Source: Limnochordia bacterium (GTDB taxonomy: Bacteria; Bacillota; Limnochordia; Darwinibacteriales; Darwinibacteriaceae). Taken from it: 64,000 nucleotides of DNA. Below, piece by piece: positions 46,885 to 59,887 of the stretch (positions are counted from its first letter, which is position 1; the number at the start of each line of letters is the position of its first letter). Location of the stretch: assembly GCA_050952265.1 (NCBI GenBank), contig JBMNKP010000004.1, forward strand, positions 101,885 through 165,884, in the 5' to 3' direction. Both the position numbers and the translations under genes were made by a program. The notes below the pieces were generated by a model. The model was not told the origin of the DNA. It ran no database searches and was given only the letters and a program-made list of their open reading frames with translations.

Positions 46885-46913
46885 TTTACAGGGATCCTGG
46901 CATGTGGTATTTT
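46885..46913 (+). promoter_or_regulatory. Sigma-A promoter upstream of the riboswitch
   Basis: TTTACA-N17-TATTTT with an extended TG. Confidence 0.5.
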
Positions 46914-46929
46914 AGTGTTGTGAAACATA

Positions 46930-46998
46930 ACTCATATAAGCCTGCAAATTTGGTGCAGGAGTCTCTACGTGGCAACCTATATTGCCTACGCTATGAGT
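46930..46998 (+). ncRNA. Purine (guanine-sensing) riboswitch aptamer
   Basis: P1 ACTCATA/TATGAGT; P2 CCTGCA-AATTTGG-TGCAGG; J2/3 AGTCTCTAC; P3 with a CC-starting loop; C at the discriminator position; upstream of a purine permease. Confidence 0.88.
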
Positions 46999-47160
46999 GA
47001 CTTATAAGCGCTTGATCAATGAGGGCTTCAGTGAAGCCGCTCATGACGTTTCCTTGCAGCTTGTCGATCACTCGATGAGTTTTTTTGTTTTTCCGGGCCC
47101 ATGGGGGAAAACTAACCCTCTGGAGATAAACCAAATTAGAGGCGGAGGAATGAGAAGCCA

Positions 47161-48522
47161 ATGGAGAGTTTCTTCAAGCTGAAGGAGAACGGCACTAATG
47201 TACGCACTGAAGTCCTGGCTGGATTGACCACGTTTTTTGCCATGGCGTACATCATCATGGTCAACCCCGACATCCTGTCGATGACGGGTATGCCCTGGGG
47301 AGCTGTCTTTCTAGCCACCATCGCTGCCTCGATCATCGGCACGCTGGTCATGGGATTGTTCGCCAATGTGCCCTATGCGCAGGCACCCGGTATGGGCCTC
47401 AATGCCTTTTTCACCTTCACGGTTGTGTTCAGTCTCGGCTTTACCTGGCAGGAAGCACTGGCCATGGTGTTTGTCTGCGGCCTGATCAACATCCTGATCA
47501 CGGTAACAAATGTCCGTAAACTGATCATCAAGTGCATCCCTGAGAGCCTGCAGAACGCCATCGGCGGCGGCATCGGCATCTTCATCGCCTACATCGGCAT
47601 CAAAAACGCCGGGCTGCTCAGTTTTGCAGCCGGCGTGCCGGAGCTGGTACCGTTTAACGATCCGGCTGTGCTGCTCACCCTCTTCGGCCTGGCCATCACC
47701 GTCATCATGCTGGTTCTGAATGTAAGGGGAGCCATCCTGATCGGTATCGTTATAACCACCCTTGTTGGTATTCCCTTTAACGTTACCGAGCTGGGAAGCA
47801 CCATCAGCCTGGGGCAGGCCTTTTCCGAGCTGCGCACCACCTTCTTTGCGGCCTTTGGGAATCCTGGACTGATTTCACTGTTCAGCGATGCGAGCAAGCT
47901 GCCCATGGTGCTCATGACCATCTTTGCCTTCAGCCTTACTGACACATTCGACACCATCGGGACGTTCATCGGTACTGGACGCCGGGCAGGCATCTTTTCT
48001 GCCGAGGATATGAAAGCGCTGGAGACCAGTTCTGGCTTCAAGTCCAAGATGGACAGAGCCCTCTTCGCAGACGCCACGGCGACTTCCATCGGTGCTATCT
48101 TCGGCACTTCCAACACGACGACCTACGTGGAGAGCGCTGCGGGTATCGGCGTTGGCGGAAGAACCGGTTTGACCAGTGTGGTCGTGGCCGTCCTCTTCGC
48201 CCTGAGCACCTTCTTCGTCCCGGCGATCAGCGCCATTCCTTCGGCCGCTACCTCCCCGGCCCTGATCATCGTGGGTATCATGATGCTGGCTTCCTTCAAG
48301 GAAGTAAACTGGTCCGATTTTGTCGAAGCCGTGCCTGCCTTCTTCGCCGGCATCTTCATGGCCCTGTGCTACAGCATCTCCTACGGGATCGCCGCTGGTT
48401 TCATCTTCTACACCCTTGTGAAGATCGCAAAAGGCCAGACCAAGGAAATCCATCCGATTCTGGCCATATCGACGATTCTCTTCATCATCAACTTCATCGT
48501 CCTGGCTGTGCTCCAAGGCTAG
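47161..48522 (+). CDS. NCS2/AzgA-family guanine-hypoxanthine permease (PbuG/PbuO-like)
   Basis: FFKLKENGT.VRTE.LAG.TTF, APGMGLNAFF, FDTIGT and YVES.AGI..GGRTGL. Confidence 0.93.
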   Translation: MESFFKLKENGTNVRTEVLAGLTTFFAMAYIIMVNPDILSMTGMPWGAVFLATIAASIIGTLVMGLFANVPYAQAPGMGLNAFFTFTVVFSLGFTWQEALAMVFVCGLINILITVTNVRKLIIKCIPESLQNAIGGGIGIFIAYIGIKNAGLLSFAAGVPELVPFNDPAVLLTLFGLAITVIMLVLNVRGAILIGIVITTLVGIPFNVTELGSTISLGQAFSELRTTFFAAFGNPGLISLFSDASKLPMVLMTIFAFSLTDTFDTIGTFIGTGRRAGIFSAEDMKALETSSGFKSKMDRALFADATATSIGAIFGTSNTTTYVESAAGIGVGGRTGLTSVVVAVLFALSTFFVPAISAIPSAATSPALIIVGIMMLASFKEVNWSDFVEAVPAFFAGIFMALCYSISYGIAAGFIFYTLVKIAKGQTKEIHPILAISTILFIINFIVLAVLQG

Positions 48523-54239: not shown

Positions 54240-54680
54240 TCAATGGTCCAGTGTGTCAGAACACTTGGACAAGTCCATGTCCACCAGGTAAGTCAGTCCA
54301 CAGCGCCTTAGAAACTGCTCCGCTTTGGCAACTGCCGGAGCGCTTTGGACGATAACCGTAACTTGATGGATGGAAGTCTGGCTCGAAGATGGGCTCGATT
54401 ATCTCGCGTAGTGCCTGTCAGACCACCCGGCCTTTTGCCATGGGTATGCCATGAGGTCTTTTCCTTCCACCCTCTTTCTCGATTTCCGCCCGCCTCACTG
54501 GACTAGGCTGGTACGTGTTGGTTCAGCTCAGCATGGATAGCGGCCAAGTTCTCCTCAAGACGCGCCTGATAGTCCTTCACGGTCTCCCCATCTATTCCAG
54601 GAGCGCCGTTGCTGGACTTGACGTGTTTGAAGGTCGTCCATGGCACAGACTTTGCCCACCAAACTGTACCACTTGTGCAT
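54240..54680 (-). pseudogene. ltrA: Group II intron reverse transcriptase/maturase fragment
   Basis: Across frameshifts: MHKWYSLVGKV..NGAPGIDGETV..LEENL..YQPSPVRRAEIEKEGGRKRPHGIP..RVV*QAL..IEPIFEPDFHPSSYGYRPKRS..VDMDLSKCSDTLDH*; stops at 54418-54420 and 54240-54242. Confidence 0.85.
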
Positions 54681-55282
54681 GCCAGAGCCTCCGATTGTGC
54701 TGAGCGTCCACTTCTCCATCCCTGTGCTGGCACAGTTGCTTCGACCAGGGGCTGTTGTCAGCTCACAGTACGTTTCAGGCTCGCTTCTGCTCACTTCGAT
54801 TCTTCTTCGCCCCTTCACGTCACCGAAGGGCTTTTGACCCCAGAGCGCCTCTTGTATGCACAGACGTCCCCCGAGTTTTCGCCTCCCACCTGTTACCAGG
54901 GTTCACAGGCTTGGGGTTCATCTACTACGGGCCCATCTGCCACCCCCAATGCTTCGCTTGGCCTCGTGTTTCCACTTGCGCCTCACTTACCCGCCCCTTC
55001 ATATGGGACATTGGTGGCTTCCCCGGTAAGTCTACCTGCCCTGCCTTGAAGCCCTCCGTCCTAACTTGCAGGGTCATCCAGCTATCGGGCTTTCCCATCT
55101 CTTGCAGGGTTACCCACTCTTCAAGCCAACCTCGGTTCACCTGCGTTATGTTCCAAGGCACCCCTCGGCTTCCTCCAAAACCCGCTGTTCGCAGTGGCAC
55201 CCTTGCCTGCTGGTAACCTTCCCGCTGGTTGGGGGATAGGGTTTCTTTCAACCCATCGGCTCGTTAGACATGCCGCGCACAC
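54240..55282 (-). mobile_element. Group IIC intron remnant 2 (5' ribozyme domains plus the first part of the IEP; 3' end missing)
   Basis: Starts GTGTGCGCGGCATG right after the lipoprotein gene terminator; IIC domain-I motifs (GCAAGGGTG..GGAGGAAGCCGAGG..GGAACA; CTTACCGGGGAAG). Confidence 0.85.
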
Positions 55283-55318
55283 AAGAAGACCCCGCGGGTT
55301 CACCCGCGAGGTCTCTTT
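55283..55318 (-). terminator. Terminator of the surface-lipoprotein gene, insertion target of intron remnant 2
   Basis: Minus strand agacctcgcgggt-ga-acccgcggggtct-tctt, then GTGTG. Confidence 0.8.
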
Positions 55319-55347
55319 GTGTAGTAACAGTTTCCGATCTACCGCTA

Positions 55348-58300
55348 CTACTGTGCGACAGGTGTTTGGTAATCCAGTGTGGTCTGTAGACCCAGATCCA
55401 TGATTTTCACAGTGATGGTGACCAGCTCGCCTGCGCTTTTCTCGTCAACCAGCTGCTTGAAATCAGAGCCTTCGAACTTGATCTGACCCTCGCCTGCTGC
55501 AAAGTCAACGTAGGCAAGGCCTTCCTTGTCGGGATCGTTGCCTAAGGGCATGATCCCCGCTGTTGTGGTAGCCTTCTTGGCCCAACTCAACTCAACCTCA
55601 ACCGAGGTGGCCGTGAAGTCAGTCAACTGGTCGAATGCATCTTGGATCTTCAAACCAATGTCGCCAAATATCCACTCTGCAACTACCTTTGCCGGATCGC
55701 CGGGTGTGATTGTAATGAACTCATCGCTCATACCCCAGGCATACCAATCCAACTCATCAAACGTGACTTCAACAGTGAGGTTTTCACCCATCTTGCGAGC
55801 GGGCACCTCAACAGACCCAACCCCATGTTCGAATTTGAAGCGACGGTTGTACTTCTCCGAGTATCCGCTCCCGAACCACGGATCGTAGATCAGGACTTCG
55901 CCGTCGACTTCGCCGGTGAAGGTGTAGACGGTTCTATCTTCCCACCCGCTATTCGTCCACACGGAGTACAGCAACTCAACACTAACCTTCACCGTGTCAC
56001 CGGTCTTGTACTCGAGGGCATCGGTTGTGATCTTAACACCCGTCGGGTACGCGTCAACGGTAAACGGATCGGTCGTGACGGTGCCCTTGTAGAGAACCTT
56101 GCCATCGTCGTCCTTTACCTCGATAGTCAGATCCGCTACAAGGTCTTCTGCGATTTCCTTTCCATAGAACGGGTTGTCTAAGACCAACCAGGCTGTACCA
56201 CCCGAAAACTCATAGCTGGAGACAGCTTTCATGGGGTCGCACCCCGTGATCTCGACAACTGCTGAAGGACTGCTTCCGTCAAACCCCCAATATGACTTGC
56301 CATTCTTGTTCAAGGCCTTGAGCTTGAACCAAATCTGTGAGTACTGAACATAGGTTGGACGGACCTCAACAACAAGCTTGTCAAATGTATCCCATCTGCA
56401 GTCGTCGTTTCCGAACTCGATGGCCCGCTTGATATCTTGGATCGATGCGCATTCGAACTCCGAGAACCAGTAGATATAGTACGGCATCCTGTCGCGATGG
56501 AAGTCCAGCTCTTCATCCTCTAGATCGAAGTCGACCTCGATCCCGTACTCCAATATCGGAGTCACGGCGTCGAGCTTTTGAAGGAGGCCTTCCACAAGAT
56601 CCGCATCGGGTTCGGCTTTTTTGGATTCTTCAACGATATCCGCCACGATTGATGCGACACAGTCCTGGTTTACCCCATTCACTGTGCCTTGGATCTCCTC
56701 TGTCCAAATACTCAGGATTTCCTCCAACACTTCGGCAACAGGATCATCCGCCTTCGCCAGCCCGTTGATGCTGTCCTCGTCGAACGGCGAGAGATCTTTC
56801 AGGCGCTTCAAATACTCCTTGAGATTCTCGACGTAGACATAGTCAAAATCGGCGGCTTGGAGTGCAGCGTACAACTGTTCCTCGTTATTGGCGGCCTTCA
56901 CGTCGACTAGGAGATCTACATCATCAAACAGACCGGCCACAGCGTCTTTGTCGACGTACTCGTCCGATACATAAGGCAACCGGGACTTGGAAACGGACAG
57001 GCGGTCAGGATCAAGCCTTGCAAAACCCAAGACGATAGACTCTGCGAACTTGAGGGCGTTGATTACATCGATGATCTTCTGGAGATCTTCGATCAACACG
57101 AGTCTCAGGTCGATCTCAGCGATGGTGGTCATGTAAGCCTTAAGGATTTCCTGGTCCTCCAGGTTAAGGCGTTCAAAGTACCCCGCGTACTCAACGAGCG
57201 CCTTTTTAAACTCTGTCAGGTCTTTTGTCTTTGCAGCCTTGATGATCGCCTGAGTAACGTCACGGTCATTTTCGAGGTCGATGGCTTTCTCGACGATCTT
57301 CTCTTGGATGTAATTTACGCGCTCAAGGCCATCAGAAGGAGGAACAACGTCGAGCAGTTGCTTCTCCGCCAAGTACACGTAGATATCCAGATACCCGCGC
57401 TCGACATCCCAGAAGGCCTGCAGAGCGTCAAAGAACTCAAGGACCGAGTCAAAACCGAGATCCAACGCGTCGTAGACGGCTTCAAAGCGCTTGTTGTAAA
57501 TGTCGTCCACTTTTCCGCGCTTGATGTTGAGGCGCTTTTTCAACTCACTCCGCTCAAGGCCGTTGGGTACTTCTTCGACCGCTTTCAGTGCGTCTTCGAA
57601 GAGAGTCTCGAACTCGGAGACCTGTGCGTAGCGCTCAGGGCCTGTGAAGTCCTCCACTGCCTTGACAAGCTTCTCAGCTTTCTTCACAGGATCCGCTTTT
57701 ACGGTCACTGTGGCTGACCATACCCGCGGATCGCCTTCAACCTGAGTCTGGATGTCCTTTTTGAGCGTGAGAGAGGCAGTAAGGGTTACTGTCTCATCCT
57801 GAGCACTGCGAGTCACATTTCCATCTGTGTCGATCACTGCAGGATTGCTCGAAGTCCAGACAGCGGTAAACTCACGACCGTCGTCAAGTTTGAACGTCTT
57901 GGGAAGGTTGATCTTGTCACCGGTGATCGGTTCATCGGGCTTGATCAAATCGGTCAGATAATCCTGAGCATCTTGGTATGCCGGCTCGTCATCTTCTGGG
58001 ACAAAGAGCACGATTACCTTTATCTGGGCCTTTAGGCCATCAGGGTTCGTCAAACCCTCTACTAGTTTGAGAACACCCTCAAGTGTATTCTCTCCCGCCT
58101 TGTCAGGATCGTAATCGTCCTCGGCCCACTCAACCGCTAGGTCGACTTTGCTGTCATCACTCAAGGTGACTTCGACAGTGTCGGGTAGGTTCAGATCGGC
58201 AAAGGGCGTGCCGATGAGCACCTTCACGTCAGCTTGCGGGGCAACAGCTTTGATCGCGAGCGTTTCCTTGATAATGATCTTAATCGAAGCTTCGATGTTG

Positions 58301-58851
58301 TCCGGGTTGATGATGCCTTCCTTGAGCTGGAGAGCGCCCTTGAGCGTGTAGGTGCCGATCTTGGCCGGATCATAGTCACCTGCGGCCCACTCTACCTCAA
58401 GCTCTTCTTAGCTGCCATCATCCAAGGTCACTTCCGCCTTTGCGGGCAGATCCAGTTCGTCAAATGCCGGAGCTTCCCCGAGGAAGTATTCCTTGTCATC
58501 GAAAGACTGAACGGCCGCGATCTTCTTGTCGGTTTCCTGATCCGGGATAGCCTTGAAGTTGTAGGCTCCACTTGAGGTTACCTTAGCCTCTGCAGGGTCG
58601 AAAGAGTATCCGTCCTTAACAGGGACAATGATGGTACCCTCTTTGAGCTTCTTCAGCTCAGCCATACCGCTCTCGTTGGTTTCCGCAAGGAGAGTTCCGG
58701 TCTGCGATCCCTCGCGGATCTCCACACCGGCCACTTCTGGGTCGATTTGGACTGTGATGTCGAAGGTCTTCGGGCCAAAGCAGCCGGACAGGAGGGACAC
58801 AACGAGCAGCAACGCAACTACCGCCATGCGTTTGTTAAGCTTTAACAACAC
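55348..58851 (-). pseudogene. Large surface lipoprotein (Ig-like repeats + helical region), interrupted by one in-frame TAA at 58408-58410
   Basis: Lipobox LLSGC. ORFs 58408..58851 and 55348..58227 share one frame, and the sequence between them continues a Big_4-like repeat (VTLDDGS*EELEVEW..DYDP vs VTLSDDSKVDLAVEW..DYDP). An atrophied-Ig-like motif WTSSNPAVIDTDGNVTR is also present. Confidence 0.85.
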
Positions 58852-58857
58852 TCTTCA

Positions 58858-58890
58858 CCTCCATAGTTTTGGCCAGCGCATCCTGCGCTG
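58858..58890 (-). promoter_or_regulatory. Putative two-site CsrA target in the lipoprotein leader
   Basis: Minus strand CAGCGC-AGGAU-GCGCUG hairpin with GGA in the loop, 18 nt upstream of the AUGGAGG Shine-Dalgarno. Confidence 0.5.
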
Positions 58891-59374
58891 CGACTGTTTC
58901 CACCCCTACGAACGCATGAAGCATTTACCGCAGGCGCGGTTCTACAGCTACTGGTCCTTGAGAACTGTGCTGTATTATGCTGTCCTTCTCCCCCCTTCTG
59001 TCGGGTGCGCAACCCCCAGTAGTAGGACGCAGTGCACGCCCTTTATGCACACGTATCCGCAGGGTGTTTCCGTGTTCCCACCGCGTGGATACGCTTGCGC
59101 CAAAACTACGAACCCCCTCACTGGGCATCCCCGTCCAGATCAACCGGTTAGCTTCGCTTGCAGCGCACTTCTCAACCACAAATCAAAAAGGACAATCCAC
59201 CTCTGCTGAGCCGCTGCTGTGTCCTACAGCCGCAAGCAAAGCCACATGGATCGTCCTTGGGTATTCATCTTTTGCCAAGCTAAGGGCGTATGCCCGAACA
59301 ACTTTTCCTTGTTTTTTCGACGTACCGGGCGCAACTCCTTCTGCCCTTCCGCGTATGCACGCAAGAACTTCCCT

Positions 59375-59578
59375 CTACTCTAACCCCGCCGTATCGTGTT
59401 CTTCGTCAACGGACCGGTTGCCGTTGTTCTGTTCGTAAACCTCTCCCCGGGTTATACTCACATGCTTCGGCGCCTTGATCGCCAGGCGCAGGTCCCCCCT
59501 GCTGCTGCGCACCACCTTTACCATAATGTCATCGCCGATCATCACGTATTCCCCCGGTTTGCGTCCCAAAACGAGCAA
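59375..59578 (-). CDS. csrA: Carbon storage regulator CsrA (stand-alone)
   Basis: MLVLGRKPGEYVMIGDDI.VKVV....LRLAIKAPK.V.I.RGEVY; TTG start behind GGGGGTGG. Confidence 0.88.
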   Translation of the reverse strand: MLVLGRKPGEYVMIGDDIMVKVVRSSRGDLRLAIKAPKHVSITRGEVYEQNNGNRSVDEEHDTAGLE

Positions 59579-59887
59579 TGACGTTCCACCCCCTGTGCAA
59601 CTCACCCCAGTAGGTCAGCAGATCACGAGCAGCTGCCTGCTGCGGTCTCAACTGAGCCATAGTCTGCGACCTTGGGCACACCGCGATCGCCATCCGTGGT
59701 CCGTCCATTGCCTCGATTTCGAGCACCGTCGGAAATCGTCTGTTTACTGTTTTGAGGAGGTTTTCGCCATTTTGACACAAATTCCTGCTCGGGGGAACAA
59801 TTTTGCTAGCACTGAAAAATGTGCTGACCCGGGATAGCCGGCTGACTCTGTCGGGGCCACTTAAGCACTGCTCCCGGCACCTAATAG

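Follow-up and report, generated by a model that had tools for sequence, protein, structure and literature searches.

A conserved hairpin RNA with candidate CsrA sites beside csrA in Bacillota, and a csrA operon with a surface lipoprotein gene in the usual place of flagellin

A two-gene operon made up of csrA and a surface lipoprotein gene, and in particular its 727 nt regulatory core, was analyzed in a 64-kb window (the whole stretch of DNA under study, whose positions are the coordinates used here) from an uncultured Limnochordia-like member of the Bacillota found in anaerobic digesters. The two genes and the spacer between them are on the minus strand, and csrA lies upstream of the co-oriented lipoprotein gene at a distance of 526 nt, in agreement with the approximately 520 nt given in a first-pass annotation made from the sequence alone. 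The core of the spacer is a rod hairpin, here named R1, which proved to be a conserved structured RNA found beside csrA genes across the phylum and which contains two unvarying segments that fit the consensus for CsrA binding. Taken together, the data are probably best explained by an operon with an R1-centered spacer in which the lipoprotein gene occupies the place of flagellin, with CsrA acting through repression, feedback and titration.

Identification and conservation of the R1 hairpin

In every lineage compared, the alignment displayed the same plan upstream and downstream of csrA, and an nhmmer search located a second copy of the first conserved spacer block upstream of csrA in the L073 group (copies and loci carry L numbers here, and sequencing runs X numbers). 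Folding of seven R1 copies with RNAalifold gave a structure of 26 pairs, of which 12 showed compensatory changes, and a covariance model built from those seven copies produced one strong match in the window, at 87 bits. In reference genomes the model produced 46 matches (E <1e-3) beside csrA homologues, nearly all of them no more than about 600 nt from a csrA within the 12-kb loci. The carriers were Clostridium, Desulfosporosinus, Peptococcales, Paenibacillus, Negativicutes (including Sporomusa), Alkalicoccus, Halalkalibacter, Tepidibacter and Limnochordia-like lineages. Most of the matches ended 20-140 nt upstream of the csrA start, many loci had another directly after the csrA stop, and two to three tandem copies preceded csrA in L036, L019, L045 and L038.

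The fold was well preserved among these copies. Both sides had changed in 22 of the 26 pairs of the 46-sequence alignment, 92.8% of paired cells were complementary compared with 34-52% when the 3' partners were slid, and the covariation score was 0.64, compared with 0.25 for shuffles and 0.07-0.09 for slid partners, all figures that are biased toward the structure by the fitting of the alignment to the model. While the stems varied, two segments were constant, namely UCA(A/G/U)GGA(C/U)GA in the 5' arm and GCAGGA(C/U/G)GC in the apical hairpin. Both fit the CsrA consensus (CAnGGAnG, with GGA in a loop), they are spaced 30-35 nt apart, and a U-run follows the hairpin. The apical AGGA was present in 46/46 copies and the GGA of the arm in 45/46. 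These comparisons show R1 to be a conserved structured RNA beside csrA whose invariant segments are candidate CsrA sites. The earlier proposal that the spacer holds strongly conserved CsrA-type sites was therefore borne out, the best two being those of the R1 hairpin, which covaries across a phylum.

The window copy of R1 had no match in Rfam 15, even at E <=10, and none of the R1 copies scanned, two strong ones from elsewhere among them, reached the gathering threshold of any Rfam 15 family, including TwoAYGGAY, Termite-flg and the CsrB clan; for L036, nothing relevant was returned. Two candidates that appeared below threshold, the L31-Firmicutes leader (22.7 bits vs. a threshold of 33.3) and Cyano-1, were rejected as unusable. 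A description of a csrA-flanking RNA in Bacillota was not found in the searchable full-text literature, subscription-only papers being outside its reach. The CsrA protein and the general logic of a GGA hairpin combined with a Shine-Dalgarno (SD) sequence are already known. By reference to Rfam and the searchable literature, what appears to be new is the R1 element, its tie to a short csrA that has no adjacent fliW and lies under sigma-D promoters, and a csrA operon in which a variable surface lipoprotein has replaced flagellin.

The 5' leader of csrA in the window contains a degenerate copy of the promoter, leader and R1 arrangement. This leader was not matched by the R1 model and its fold had a z score of -1.4, and intact upstream R1 copies scored 64-92 bits in the relatives L070, L011 and L073.

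The csrA gene and its product

The csrA gene is preceded by an SD sequence (GGGGGUGGA, 59593-59585) located 6 nt before its start. Its product gave a full-length match to Pfam PF02599 (E value 6.4e-21, 74.5 bits vs. a cut-off of 27), in which residues 1-50 aligned to positions 1-50 of the 53 in the profile, and it fell below the NCBIfam equivalog cut-offs (TIGR00202/NF002469, 61.9 vs. 70.1 bits and 63.6 vs. 73). By these alignments the protein is a member of a divergent short subfamily, 51-67 amino acids in length, with a non-conserved tail after about residue 50. Residues L2, L4, R6, V40/V42 and R44 are critical for RNA binding in the numbering of E. coli CsrA, and alignment to that protein (1Y00; MLVLGRK..., ...KHVSITRGEVY) showed that L2, L4, R6, V40 and R44 are retained. 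The nearest solved structure was that of E. coli CsrA, which scored above the FliW-bound Geobacillus CsrA. An identical CsrA protein was encoded in 295 blocks of the public assembly collection.

As had been annotated, no fliW or flagellar genes lie near csrA: there was no FliW or flagellar Pfam family among the genes called within 10 kb on either side in strain-level copies of the locus, and a tblastn search for flagellin across the entire 64-kb window gave no match. The view of this csrA as a free-standing oddity did not hold, as it is a member of a widespread short subfamily that is flanked by R1 and usually found just upstream of flagellin under sigma-D promoters.

The csrA-flagellin cassette and its lipoprotein version

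A flagellin gene was found downstream of csrA in 43 of the 57 other reference loci, with its start no more than about 1 kb and in most of them 100-550 nt away. Inspection of these 57 loci, by eye and not with Hidden Markov Models, revealed no open reading frame (ORF) abutting csrA as fliW does in B. subtilis, and the recognizable upstream neighbors encoded flagellin or FliS-like proteins. The locus of Clostridium sp. YIM B02505 illustrates the arrangement, with flagellin followed by TAAAGTTC-N11-TTCGAATAA, R1, an SD and csrA, another R1, a leader and a flagellin gene. In this locus the second R1 terminates csrA and lacks a promoter of its own. The flagellin leader contains the hairpin GUGGA-AAAGGAUG-UCCAC and then CAAGGAGGG, that is, a GGA loop and a GGA-containing SD, and the hairpin and SD layout predicted earlier for the lipoprotein leader matches this flagellin leader beside a homologous csrA. 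Since flagellin is normally found downstream of R1-flanked csrA elsewhere, and a lipoprotein gene is found here, the window locus appears to be a derived cassette.

Several loci carried R1 in other arrangements. Two to four copies, with a second csrA paralogue between them, were present in L038 (4212-4805, minus strand), L045 (1098-1642), L019 (4461-5109) and L036 (5801-5971), and the sequence upstream of two such matches encoded ...RGE(V/I)YE, the C-terminus of CsrA. In Sporomusa (L042, 7811-7892) R1 was located directly after the flagellin gene.

The spacer was identical in the strain-level copies L001-L010, which thus provide no comparative information. The same arrangement, with a spacer of about 500-540 nt between csrA and an orthologous lipoprotein gene, is present in three further lineages: the P0006 Limnochordia group (L070-72, CsrA 81% identical), the P0002 group (L073-76, 87%) and Firmicutes bacterium UBA4996 (L011, 78%). 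A metagenome-wide pattern scan recovered only these four lineages, and the gene order looked for by the synteny search was maintained in all of them. The spacer DNA is conserved in blocks, with approximately 70-73% identity overall. Two small ORFs of the spacer, one of 46 aa (59364..59224) and one that follows the purine tract, were rejected because of indels or missing starts in relatives.

Transcription of the operon

The region was found in RNA and DNA runs from digester, biogas, manure and similar metagenomes, and the RNA evidence consisted of assembled metatranscriptome contigs. Single contigs of 4.4-4.8 kb (X11, X13 and X20) that began at 59738 or 59756 covered csrA, the spacer and the lipoprotein gene as far as its end. 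In addition to the 5' ends listed in Table 1, contigs stopped at 59738 (X11) and 59736 (X7). An adapter-capped 3' end was found at 55271 (X19), where depth fell from 748 to about 5. The operon RNA is about 4.4 kb long and ends at about 55271-55320. Depth in the upstream opp (oligopeptide-transporter) genes was 0-13 compared with 200-1150 in the operon, which excludes DNA carry-over in those runs. These data show that csrA, the spacer and the lipoprotein gene form one RNA that begins at 59756, the start associated with the promoter P1, and that the spacer is transcribed, as had been expected. The adapter orientations would fit minus-strand RNA if the libraries were dUTP-stranded.

In run X19 an adapter-capped 3' end at 59247 abutted an adapter-capped 5' end at 59246, placing a cut inside R1. 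The upstream species (59740..59247) had a depth of 53 and the downstream species (59246..55271, capped at both ends) a depth of 748, a difference of approximately 14-fold. Depth steps of 8- to 26-fold were present in other runs at 59285 (X5), about 59400 (X10), 59147/59116 (X22) and 58894 (X4), and contigs of the lipoprotein part were 5- to 90-fold deeper than the upstream opp genes. No contig ended at the R1 U-run (near 59184) or began at the start predicted for a second promoter-like site, P2 (near 59309). A discrete spacer RNA, which had also been suggested, was not seen, the contigs reading through the spacer, although contigs detect small RNAs poorly.

The -35 element of P1 deviates from the sigma-D (sigma-28) consensus TAAA(GTTT)-N11-(GC)CGATAA. 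P1 lies at the same relative site as the TAAAGTTT-N11-nnCGATAt promoters upstream of R1 and csrA in other Bacillota, canonical sigma-D promoters are found 30-45 nt upstream of R1 in most taxa, and the promoter of the Negativicutes locus L019, TTAAGGATTT-N11-TACGATAT, is intermediate to the Limnochordia form GAAGGAnTT-N11-GnCGAAA. These similarities suggest that P1 is of the sigma-D type. Each locus has exactly two occurrences of the Limnochordia form; one, P1, precedes csrA and the other, P2, lies between csrA and R1. For P2 there was one suggestive depth step near 59285 (X5). A sigma-H promoter (RnAGGAnTT-N11-RnnGAAR) was considered and dropped once canonical sigma-D promoters had been recognized at the corresponding site of other taxa and the flagellin context had become apparent. 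A third candidate, AGCGAAG (59158-59152), resembles the -10 elements of P1 and P2, and the X22 boundary (59147|59116) is 6 nt downstream of it; it had no -35 match and was not conserved in the other lineages. A simple promoter and terminator scan gave nothing relevant on the minus strand.

Variation was also seen among strains in this region. One base at 59782, in the P1 -35 element, is missing from many strains, and in some strains 13 nt (TTACTGTTTTGAG) are inserted at 59743, just past the transcript start. Runs with the 59782 deletion mostly had flat, low depth without a sharp 5' boundary, and the correlation was imperfect (X16 and X21).

GGA motifs and the leader of the lipoprotein gene

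The minus strand between 59374 and 58852 contains exactly eight ANGGA motifs, the number counted by hand in the first-pass annotation; the two or so thought to be expected proved too low, as dinucleotide shuffles gave 2.8 (p = 0.004) and mononucleotide shuffles 3.7 (p = 0.025). No 523-nt window on either strand of the 64 kb had more than eight such motifs; the mean was 2.16, and 0.08% of the windows reached eight. The 18 plain GGAs of the spacer placed it merely in the top 5% of windows. Conservation of each GGA was scored across the four lineages that carry the lipoprotein version (Table 1). A role as a promoter -35 element fits the GGA at 59338 best, because the form GAAGGAnTT-N11-GnCGAAA, which is related to the sigma-D type, recurs there as P2. 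At least this one of the GGAs initially counted is assigned to a promoter, and another lies in a stem; those of R1 are strongly conserved.

The hairpin CAGCGC-AGGAU-GCGCUG described before the SD is present in the minimum-free-energy fold. Its distance from the SD had been put at 18 nt; the hairpin ends 9 nt before AUGGAGG, and the loop GGA at 58883 and the SD GGA at 58862 are 21 nt apart. The start codon had been placed at a GTG (58851), and the conserved start is instead the TTG at 58848. The leader thus has the two-GGA layout of the hag type, in which 10-60 nt separate a GGA in a hairpin loop from a GGA over the SD. The corresponding loop reads AUGAU in the L073 group and GAGAGU in UBA4996. 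The fold of the whole leader had a z score of -3.2. Further upstream, a purine tract that resembles an SD is a candidate stabilizer or CsrA site. A pairing of UGCGUCC (about 59020) with the SD, proposed by RNAalifold, was weak, showed no covariation and was rejected.

The lipoprotein gene varies among strains. The window has an in-frame TAA at 58410-58408 (minus strand) where other strains have AAA (Lys) and an intact ORF of 1166 amino acids. The TAA allele was also present in L004 and L005 and in runs X1, X2, X5, X6 and X8, and the intact AAA allele in X3, X4, X7, X9, X10, X16-18 and X24. A skip of 270 nt, corresponding to one 90-aa Ig-like repeat (window 58261-58532), was found in X7, X10, X17 and X18, L002 encodes a longer lipoprotein of 1357 amino acids, and L007 and L009 have other rearrangements, such that the number of repeats differs among strains. 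In the sister lineage L068/L069 (6390-7986) a deletion joins the sequence after R1 to about codon 612, the encoded protein being 82% identical to residues 612-1119 of L070. This is a second, independent inactivation of the lipoprotein gene, and the 'different downstream gene' at first considered for L068/L069 is the same gene with a 5' deletion. In the early coding sequence, the segment 58683-58740 was not covered by any contig in X9, X15, X16 and X21, and X21 had an adapter-capped RNA end at 58741; this segment may be a second processing site or may vary among strains.

Comparison with known systems

The locus is most similar to hag of B. subtilis, where CsrA binds two sites, BS1 (a hairpin-loop GGA, AAGGAC) and BS2 over the SD, and where FliW, CsrA and Hag form a partner switch. 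Shared features are a csrA directly upstream of and co-oriented with a structural target gene, a sigma-D-type promoter, a GGA-loop hairpin tens of nt before a GGA-containing SD in the target leader, an R1 apical loop (AGGAC) that resembles BS1, and the presence of flagellin downstream in the homologous cassettes of other Bacillota. The locus differs from hag in the lack of a fliW beside csrA, both here and in the 57 related loci, in its short CsrA, in a target that is a Big_4 lipoprotein, in the location of csrA and target on one RNA, and in the extra conserved R1 that flanks csrA.

Similarities to E. coli csrA autoregulation and to CsrB, CsrC and RsmX/Y/Z include loop GGAs that fit CAGGAUG-type repeats, their presence in csrA's own transcript and a potential for titration. 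R1 also has the decoy feature of several exposed GGAs, with two sites per R1 and conserved loop GGAs added by the leader. Unlike the CsrB-type RNAs, R1 consists of one rod hairpin bearing exactly two sites, plus a U-run, is linked in cis to csrA on one or both sides, is associated with a flagellar-type sigma factor and belongs to Bacillota. We know of no RNA antagonist of CsrA in Bacillota, and none was found in the searchable literature.

In B. subtilis cggR-gapA, intercistronic processing uncouples the mRNA levels of a regulator and a structural gene. The present operon is similar in that the regulator gene comes first, the spacer undergoes an endonucleolytic cut beside a stable hairpin and the mRNA downstream of the cut is present in far larger amounts; it differs in that the cut was seen in a single run and in that the processed element carries predicted sites for the regulator itself. 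The sole Rfam family to overlap an R1 copy was TwoAYGGAY (RF01731, clan CL00106), a motif described from the human gut, Gammaproteobacteria and Clostridiales (Weinberg et al. 2010, PMC2864571). The likeness lies in the AYGGAY of its name, the Clostridium R1 arm reading AUGGAC. The overlap, at 18.2 bits compared with a gathering threshold of 43 (E value 7), was limited to one Clostridium copy and did not involve the window, and the architecture and gene context differ.

Proposed mechanism and alternative explanations

In the model that we favor, the csrA-flagellin cassette would be ancestral and the lipoprotein gene would have taken the place of flagellin. Judging from the placement of the motifs, CsrA dimers could bind R1 and the SD-proximal GGAs (the SD at 58862 together with 58901, the 58883 loop or both), and such binding would repress translation of the lipoprotein by analogy with the action of CsrA on B. 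subtilis hag. CsrA may feed back on its own synthesis through the R1-type leader, and the abundant GGA-rich lipoprotein leader may soak up CsrA. For R1 itself, CsrA bound to the 5' arm might alternatively open the terminator-like stem (antitermination), or R1 might act as a 5' stabilizer after processing. The interpretation first offered for this locus, of a dedicated CsrA repressing a surface protein whose leader may also titrate it, is partly supported. A more ambitious proposal, which we regard as tentative, is that R1 represents a new class of cis-encoded CsrA-binding RNA belonging to a FliW-independent branch of CsrA, in which a sensing terminator or attenuator and a sigma-D decoy would do for the short CsrA subfamily the work of FliW on canonical CsrA, and in which a Limnochordia-like lineage would have rewired the circuit from flagellin to a strongly expressed and fast-varying surface lipoprotein.

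Several observations weigh against the favored model. The upstream R1 copy is degenerate in the window, so that csrA autoregulation may be weak here, and fliW could sit elsewhere in the genome, beyond the 10 kb searched on either side. Of the pre-SD elements expected to be conserved in orthologues, the position of the hairpin (4/4) and the SD GGA (4/4) are kept, as is an alternative upstream GGA at 58901 (4/4), and the loop GGA is kept in two of the four lineages. The lipoprotein version is confined to four closely related lineages, and covariation in blocks 2 and 3 is consequently thin. The in-frame TAA makes the lipoprotein gene a natural pseudogene in the window strain. GGA-rich purine tracts double as SD-like stabilizers and the GGA at 59338 as a promoter element, so that part of the enrichment needs no CsrA. 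Lastly, depth is a mean per contig, strand is indicated only indirectly, and the processing site comes from one run.

Some of these points would also be accounted for by a leader that serves mRNA maturation and stability and has no specific role for CsrA, with R1 as the csrA terminator and a processing signal, its inner hairpin capping and protecting the 5' end of the very abundant lipoprotein mRNA once cleaved, the purine tract acting like a STAB-SD and the GGA excess arising as a by-product of the promoter -35, SD-like and stem sequences. The cut at 59247/59246 is 3 nt before a stable hairpin, with the downstream RNA 14-fold up, the lipoprotein part is 8- to 26-fold deeper in other runs too, the GGAs at 59338 (promoter), 59256 and 59058 (stems) and 58991 and 58985 (SD-like tract) all have such an assignment, and the GGA of the pre-SD loop is not conserved. 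We nevertheless consider this explanation rather unlikely, for it leaves unexplained both the exact CsrA consensus that the R1 arm and loop retain in Clostridia, Negativicutes, Paenibacillus and Limnochordia despite free covariation of the stems, and the occurrence of R1 at csrA and not at other flagellin genes of the same locus; it is in any case compatible with CsrA control and does not compete with it exclusively. P2 and R1 might instead encode a separate small RNA of about 125 nt that titrates CsrA as a decoy, like FliW or CsrB/RsmZ, the lipoprotein gene being merely the next gene. The promoter-like site 50 nt upstream of R1 in four lineages, the U-run and two high-quality candidate CsrA sites of R1, the two to three tandem copies in some genomes, the lack of a FliW-like ORF abutting csrA in the 57 loci examined by eye and the sub-threshold Rfam resemblance to TwoAYGGAY (clan CL00106) are all consistent with such a decoy. 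Contigs cross R1 at high depth, however, with no end near 59184 and no 5' end near 59309, and the downstream R1 in Clostridium lacks its own promoter, and a separate decoy seems to us quite improbable. Like the stability leader, it overlaps with CsrA control of the operon rather than excluding it.

That the spacer is a purine-rich intergenic accident, its proximity to csrA being meaningless, is hardly credible. The plain GGA count, in the top 5% only, and the mononucleotide p value of 0.025 for ANGGA would allow it; the block-wise conservation of the spacer in four lineages, the covariation of R1, the co-transcription of csrA, spacer and lipoprotein gene and the recurrence of R1 beside csrA across the phylum argue against it.

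To our knowledge, CsrA of Bacillota is understood almost entirely through the FliW-CsrA-flagellin system of B. subtilis, and RNA antagonists of CsrA are viewed as characteristic of Gammaproteobacteria. The short csrA subfamily bracketed by R1, which is widespread and has no fliW beside it, points to a candidate for RNA-based control of CsrA in Gram-positives, and the present locus would be a natural case of a circuit moved from flagellin to another abundant surface protein. The lipoprotein has repeatedly been inactivated or altered in length in wild populations, a pattern often seen in antigens exposed to phages or hosts. With R1 included as an RNA family, many genomes of Clostridium, Paenibacillus, Desulfosporosinus and Negativicutes would be better annotated.

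Features of the locus and its surroundings

The features of the operon are collected in Table 1.

Table 1. Coordinates of features in the csrA-lipoprotein operon; fractions are the lineages of four in which a GGA or site is kept
Feature	Position	Strand	Remarks
P1, sigma-D (sigma-28)-type promoter	59788-59762	-	GCAGGAATT-N11-GGCGAAA; by pattern, RNA 5' end 6 nt downstream
RNA 5' end	59756	-	X13, X20 (Illumina adapter for X20)
RNA 5' end	59740	-	X15, X19 (adapter)
csrA 5' leader	59579..59755	-	degenerate promoter-leader-R1 copy; arm-like site CACGGAUGG; apical loop AGGCA; no U-run
csrA	59578..59375	-	67 aa; TTG start; short C-terminus
P2, sigma-D-type promoter-like site	59341-59315	-	GAAGGAGTT-N11-GTCGAAA; 4/4; holds GGA 59338
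GGA	59338	-	4/4; P2 -35
GGA	59308	-	3/4
R1, rod hairpin	59265..59179	-	86 nt; spacer core; two candidate CsrA sites and U-run
R1 5' arm	59260-59247	-	CCAAGGACGAUCCA; CsrA consensus CAnGGAnG; candidate site CAAGGACGA
GGA	59256	-	4/4; R1 5' arm
Processing site inside R1	59247/59246	-	X19 only; after 5' arm, 3 nt before inner hairpin
R1 apical hairpin	59230-59216	-	GCUGU-AGGAC-ACAGC; GGA in loop
GGA	59224	-	4/4; R1 apical loop
R1 3' arm and UUUUU	59199-59184	-	
Block-2 leader hairpin	59100-59047	-	12-nt loop GGAACACGGAAA; 17 pairs, 2 compensatory (RNAalifold, 4 lineages)
GGAs	59078, 59071	-	3/4; block-2 hairpin loop
GGA	59058	-	3/4; stem
Purine tract	58999..58983	-	AGAAGGGGGGAGAAGGA; SD-like, no start codon behind; 4/4 as AGAAGGGGGGAAGGAGG or UAGGAAGGGAGGAAGG
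GGA	58991	-	3/4; purine tract
GGA	58901	-	4/4; in GGGGUGGAAACAG (58894..58906), 39 nt upstream of SD GGA
Pre-SD hairpin	58890-58874	-	CAGCGC-AGGAU-GCGCUG; in minimum-free-energy fold
GGA	58883	-	2/4; pre-SD hairpin loop, the GGA of the first-pass annotation
Lipoprotein SD	58864-58856	-	AUGGAGGUG; conserved TTG start 58848
GGA	58862	-	4/4; lipoprotein SD
Surface lipoprotein gene	58848..55348	-	lipobox LLSGC; Big_4, aBig_2
Terminator hairpin	55315-55286	-	from sequence

Just downstream of the lipoprotein terminator, a match to group II intron D1-D4 RNA was found at 55030-55198 (minus strand; 43 bits vs. a gathering threshold of 32), along with a fragment of a reverse-transcriptase-like ORF at 54503-54733; there was no long intact ORF in the segment from about 54500 to 55290. 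Some contigs had a rearranged junction from 55288 to 54500 with 3144 letters between. This segment is probably a degenerate or polymorphic intron insertion. Elsewhere in the window, a purine riboswitch aptamer (RF00167, 56 bits) was located at 46912-47013 on the plus strand, upstream of an ORF at 47161-48522.

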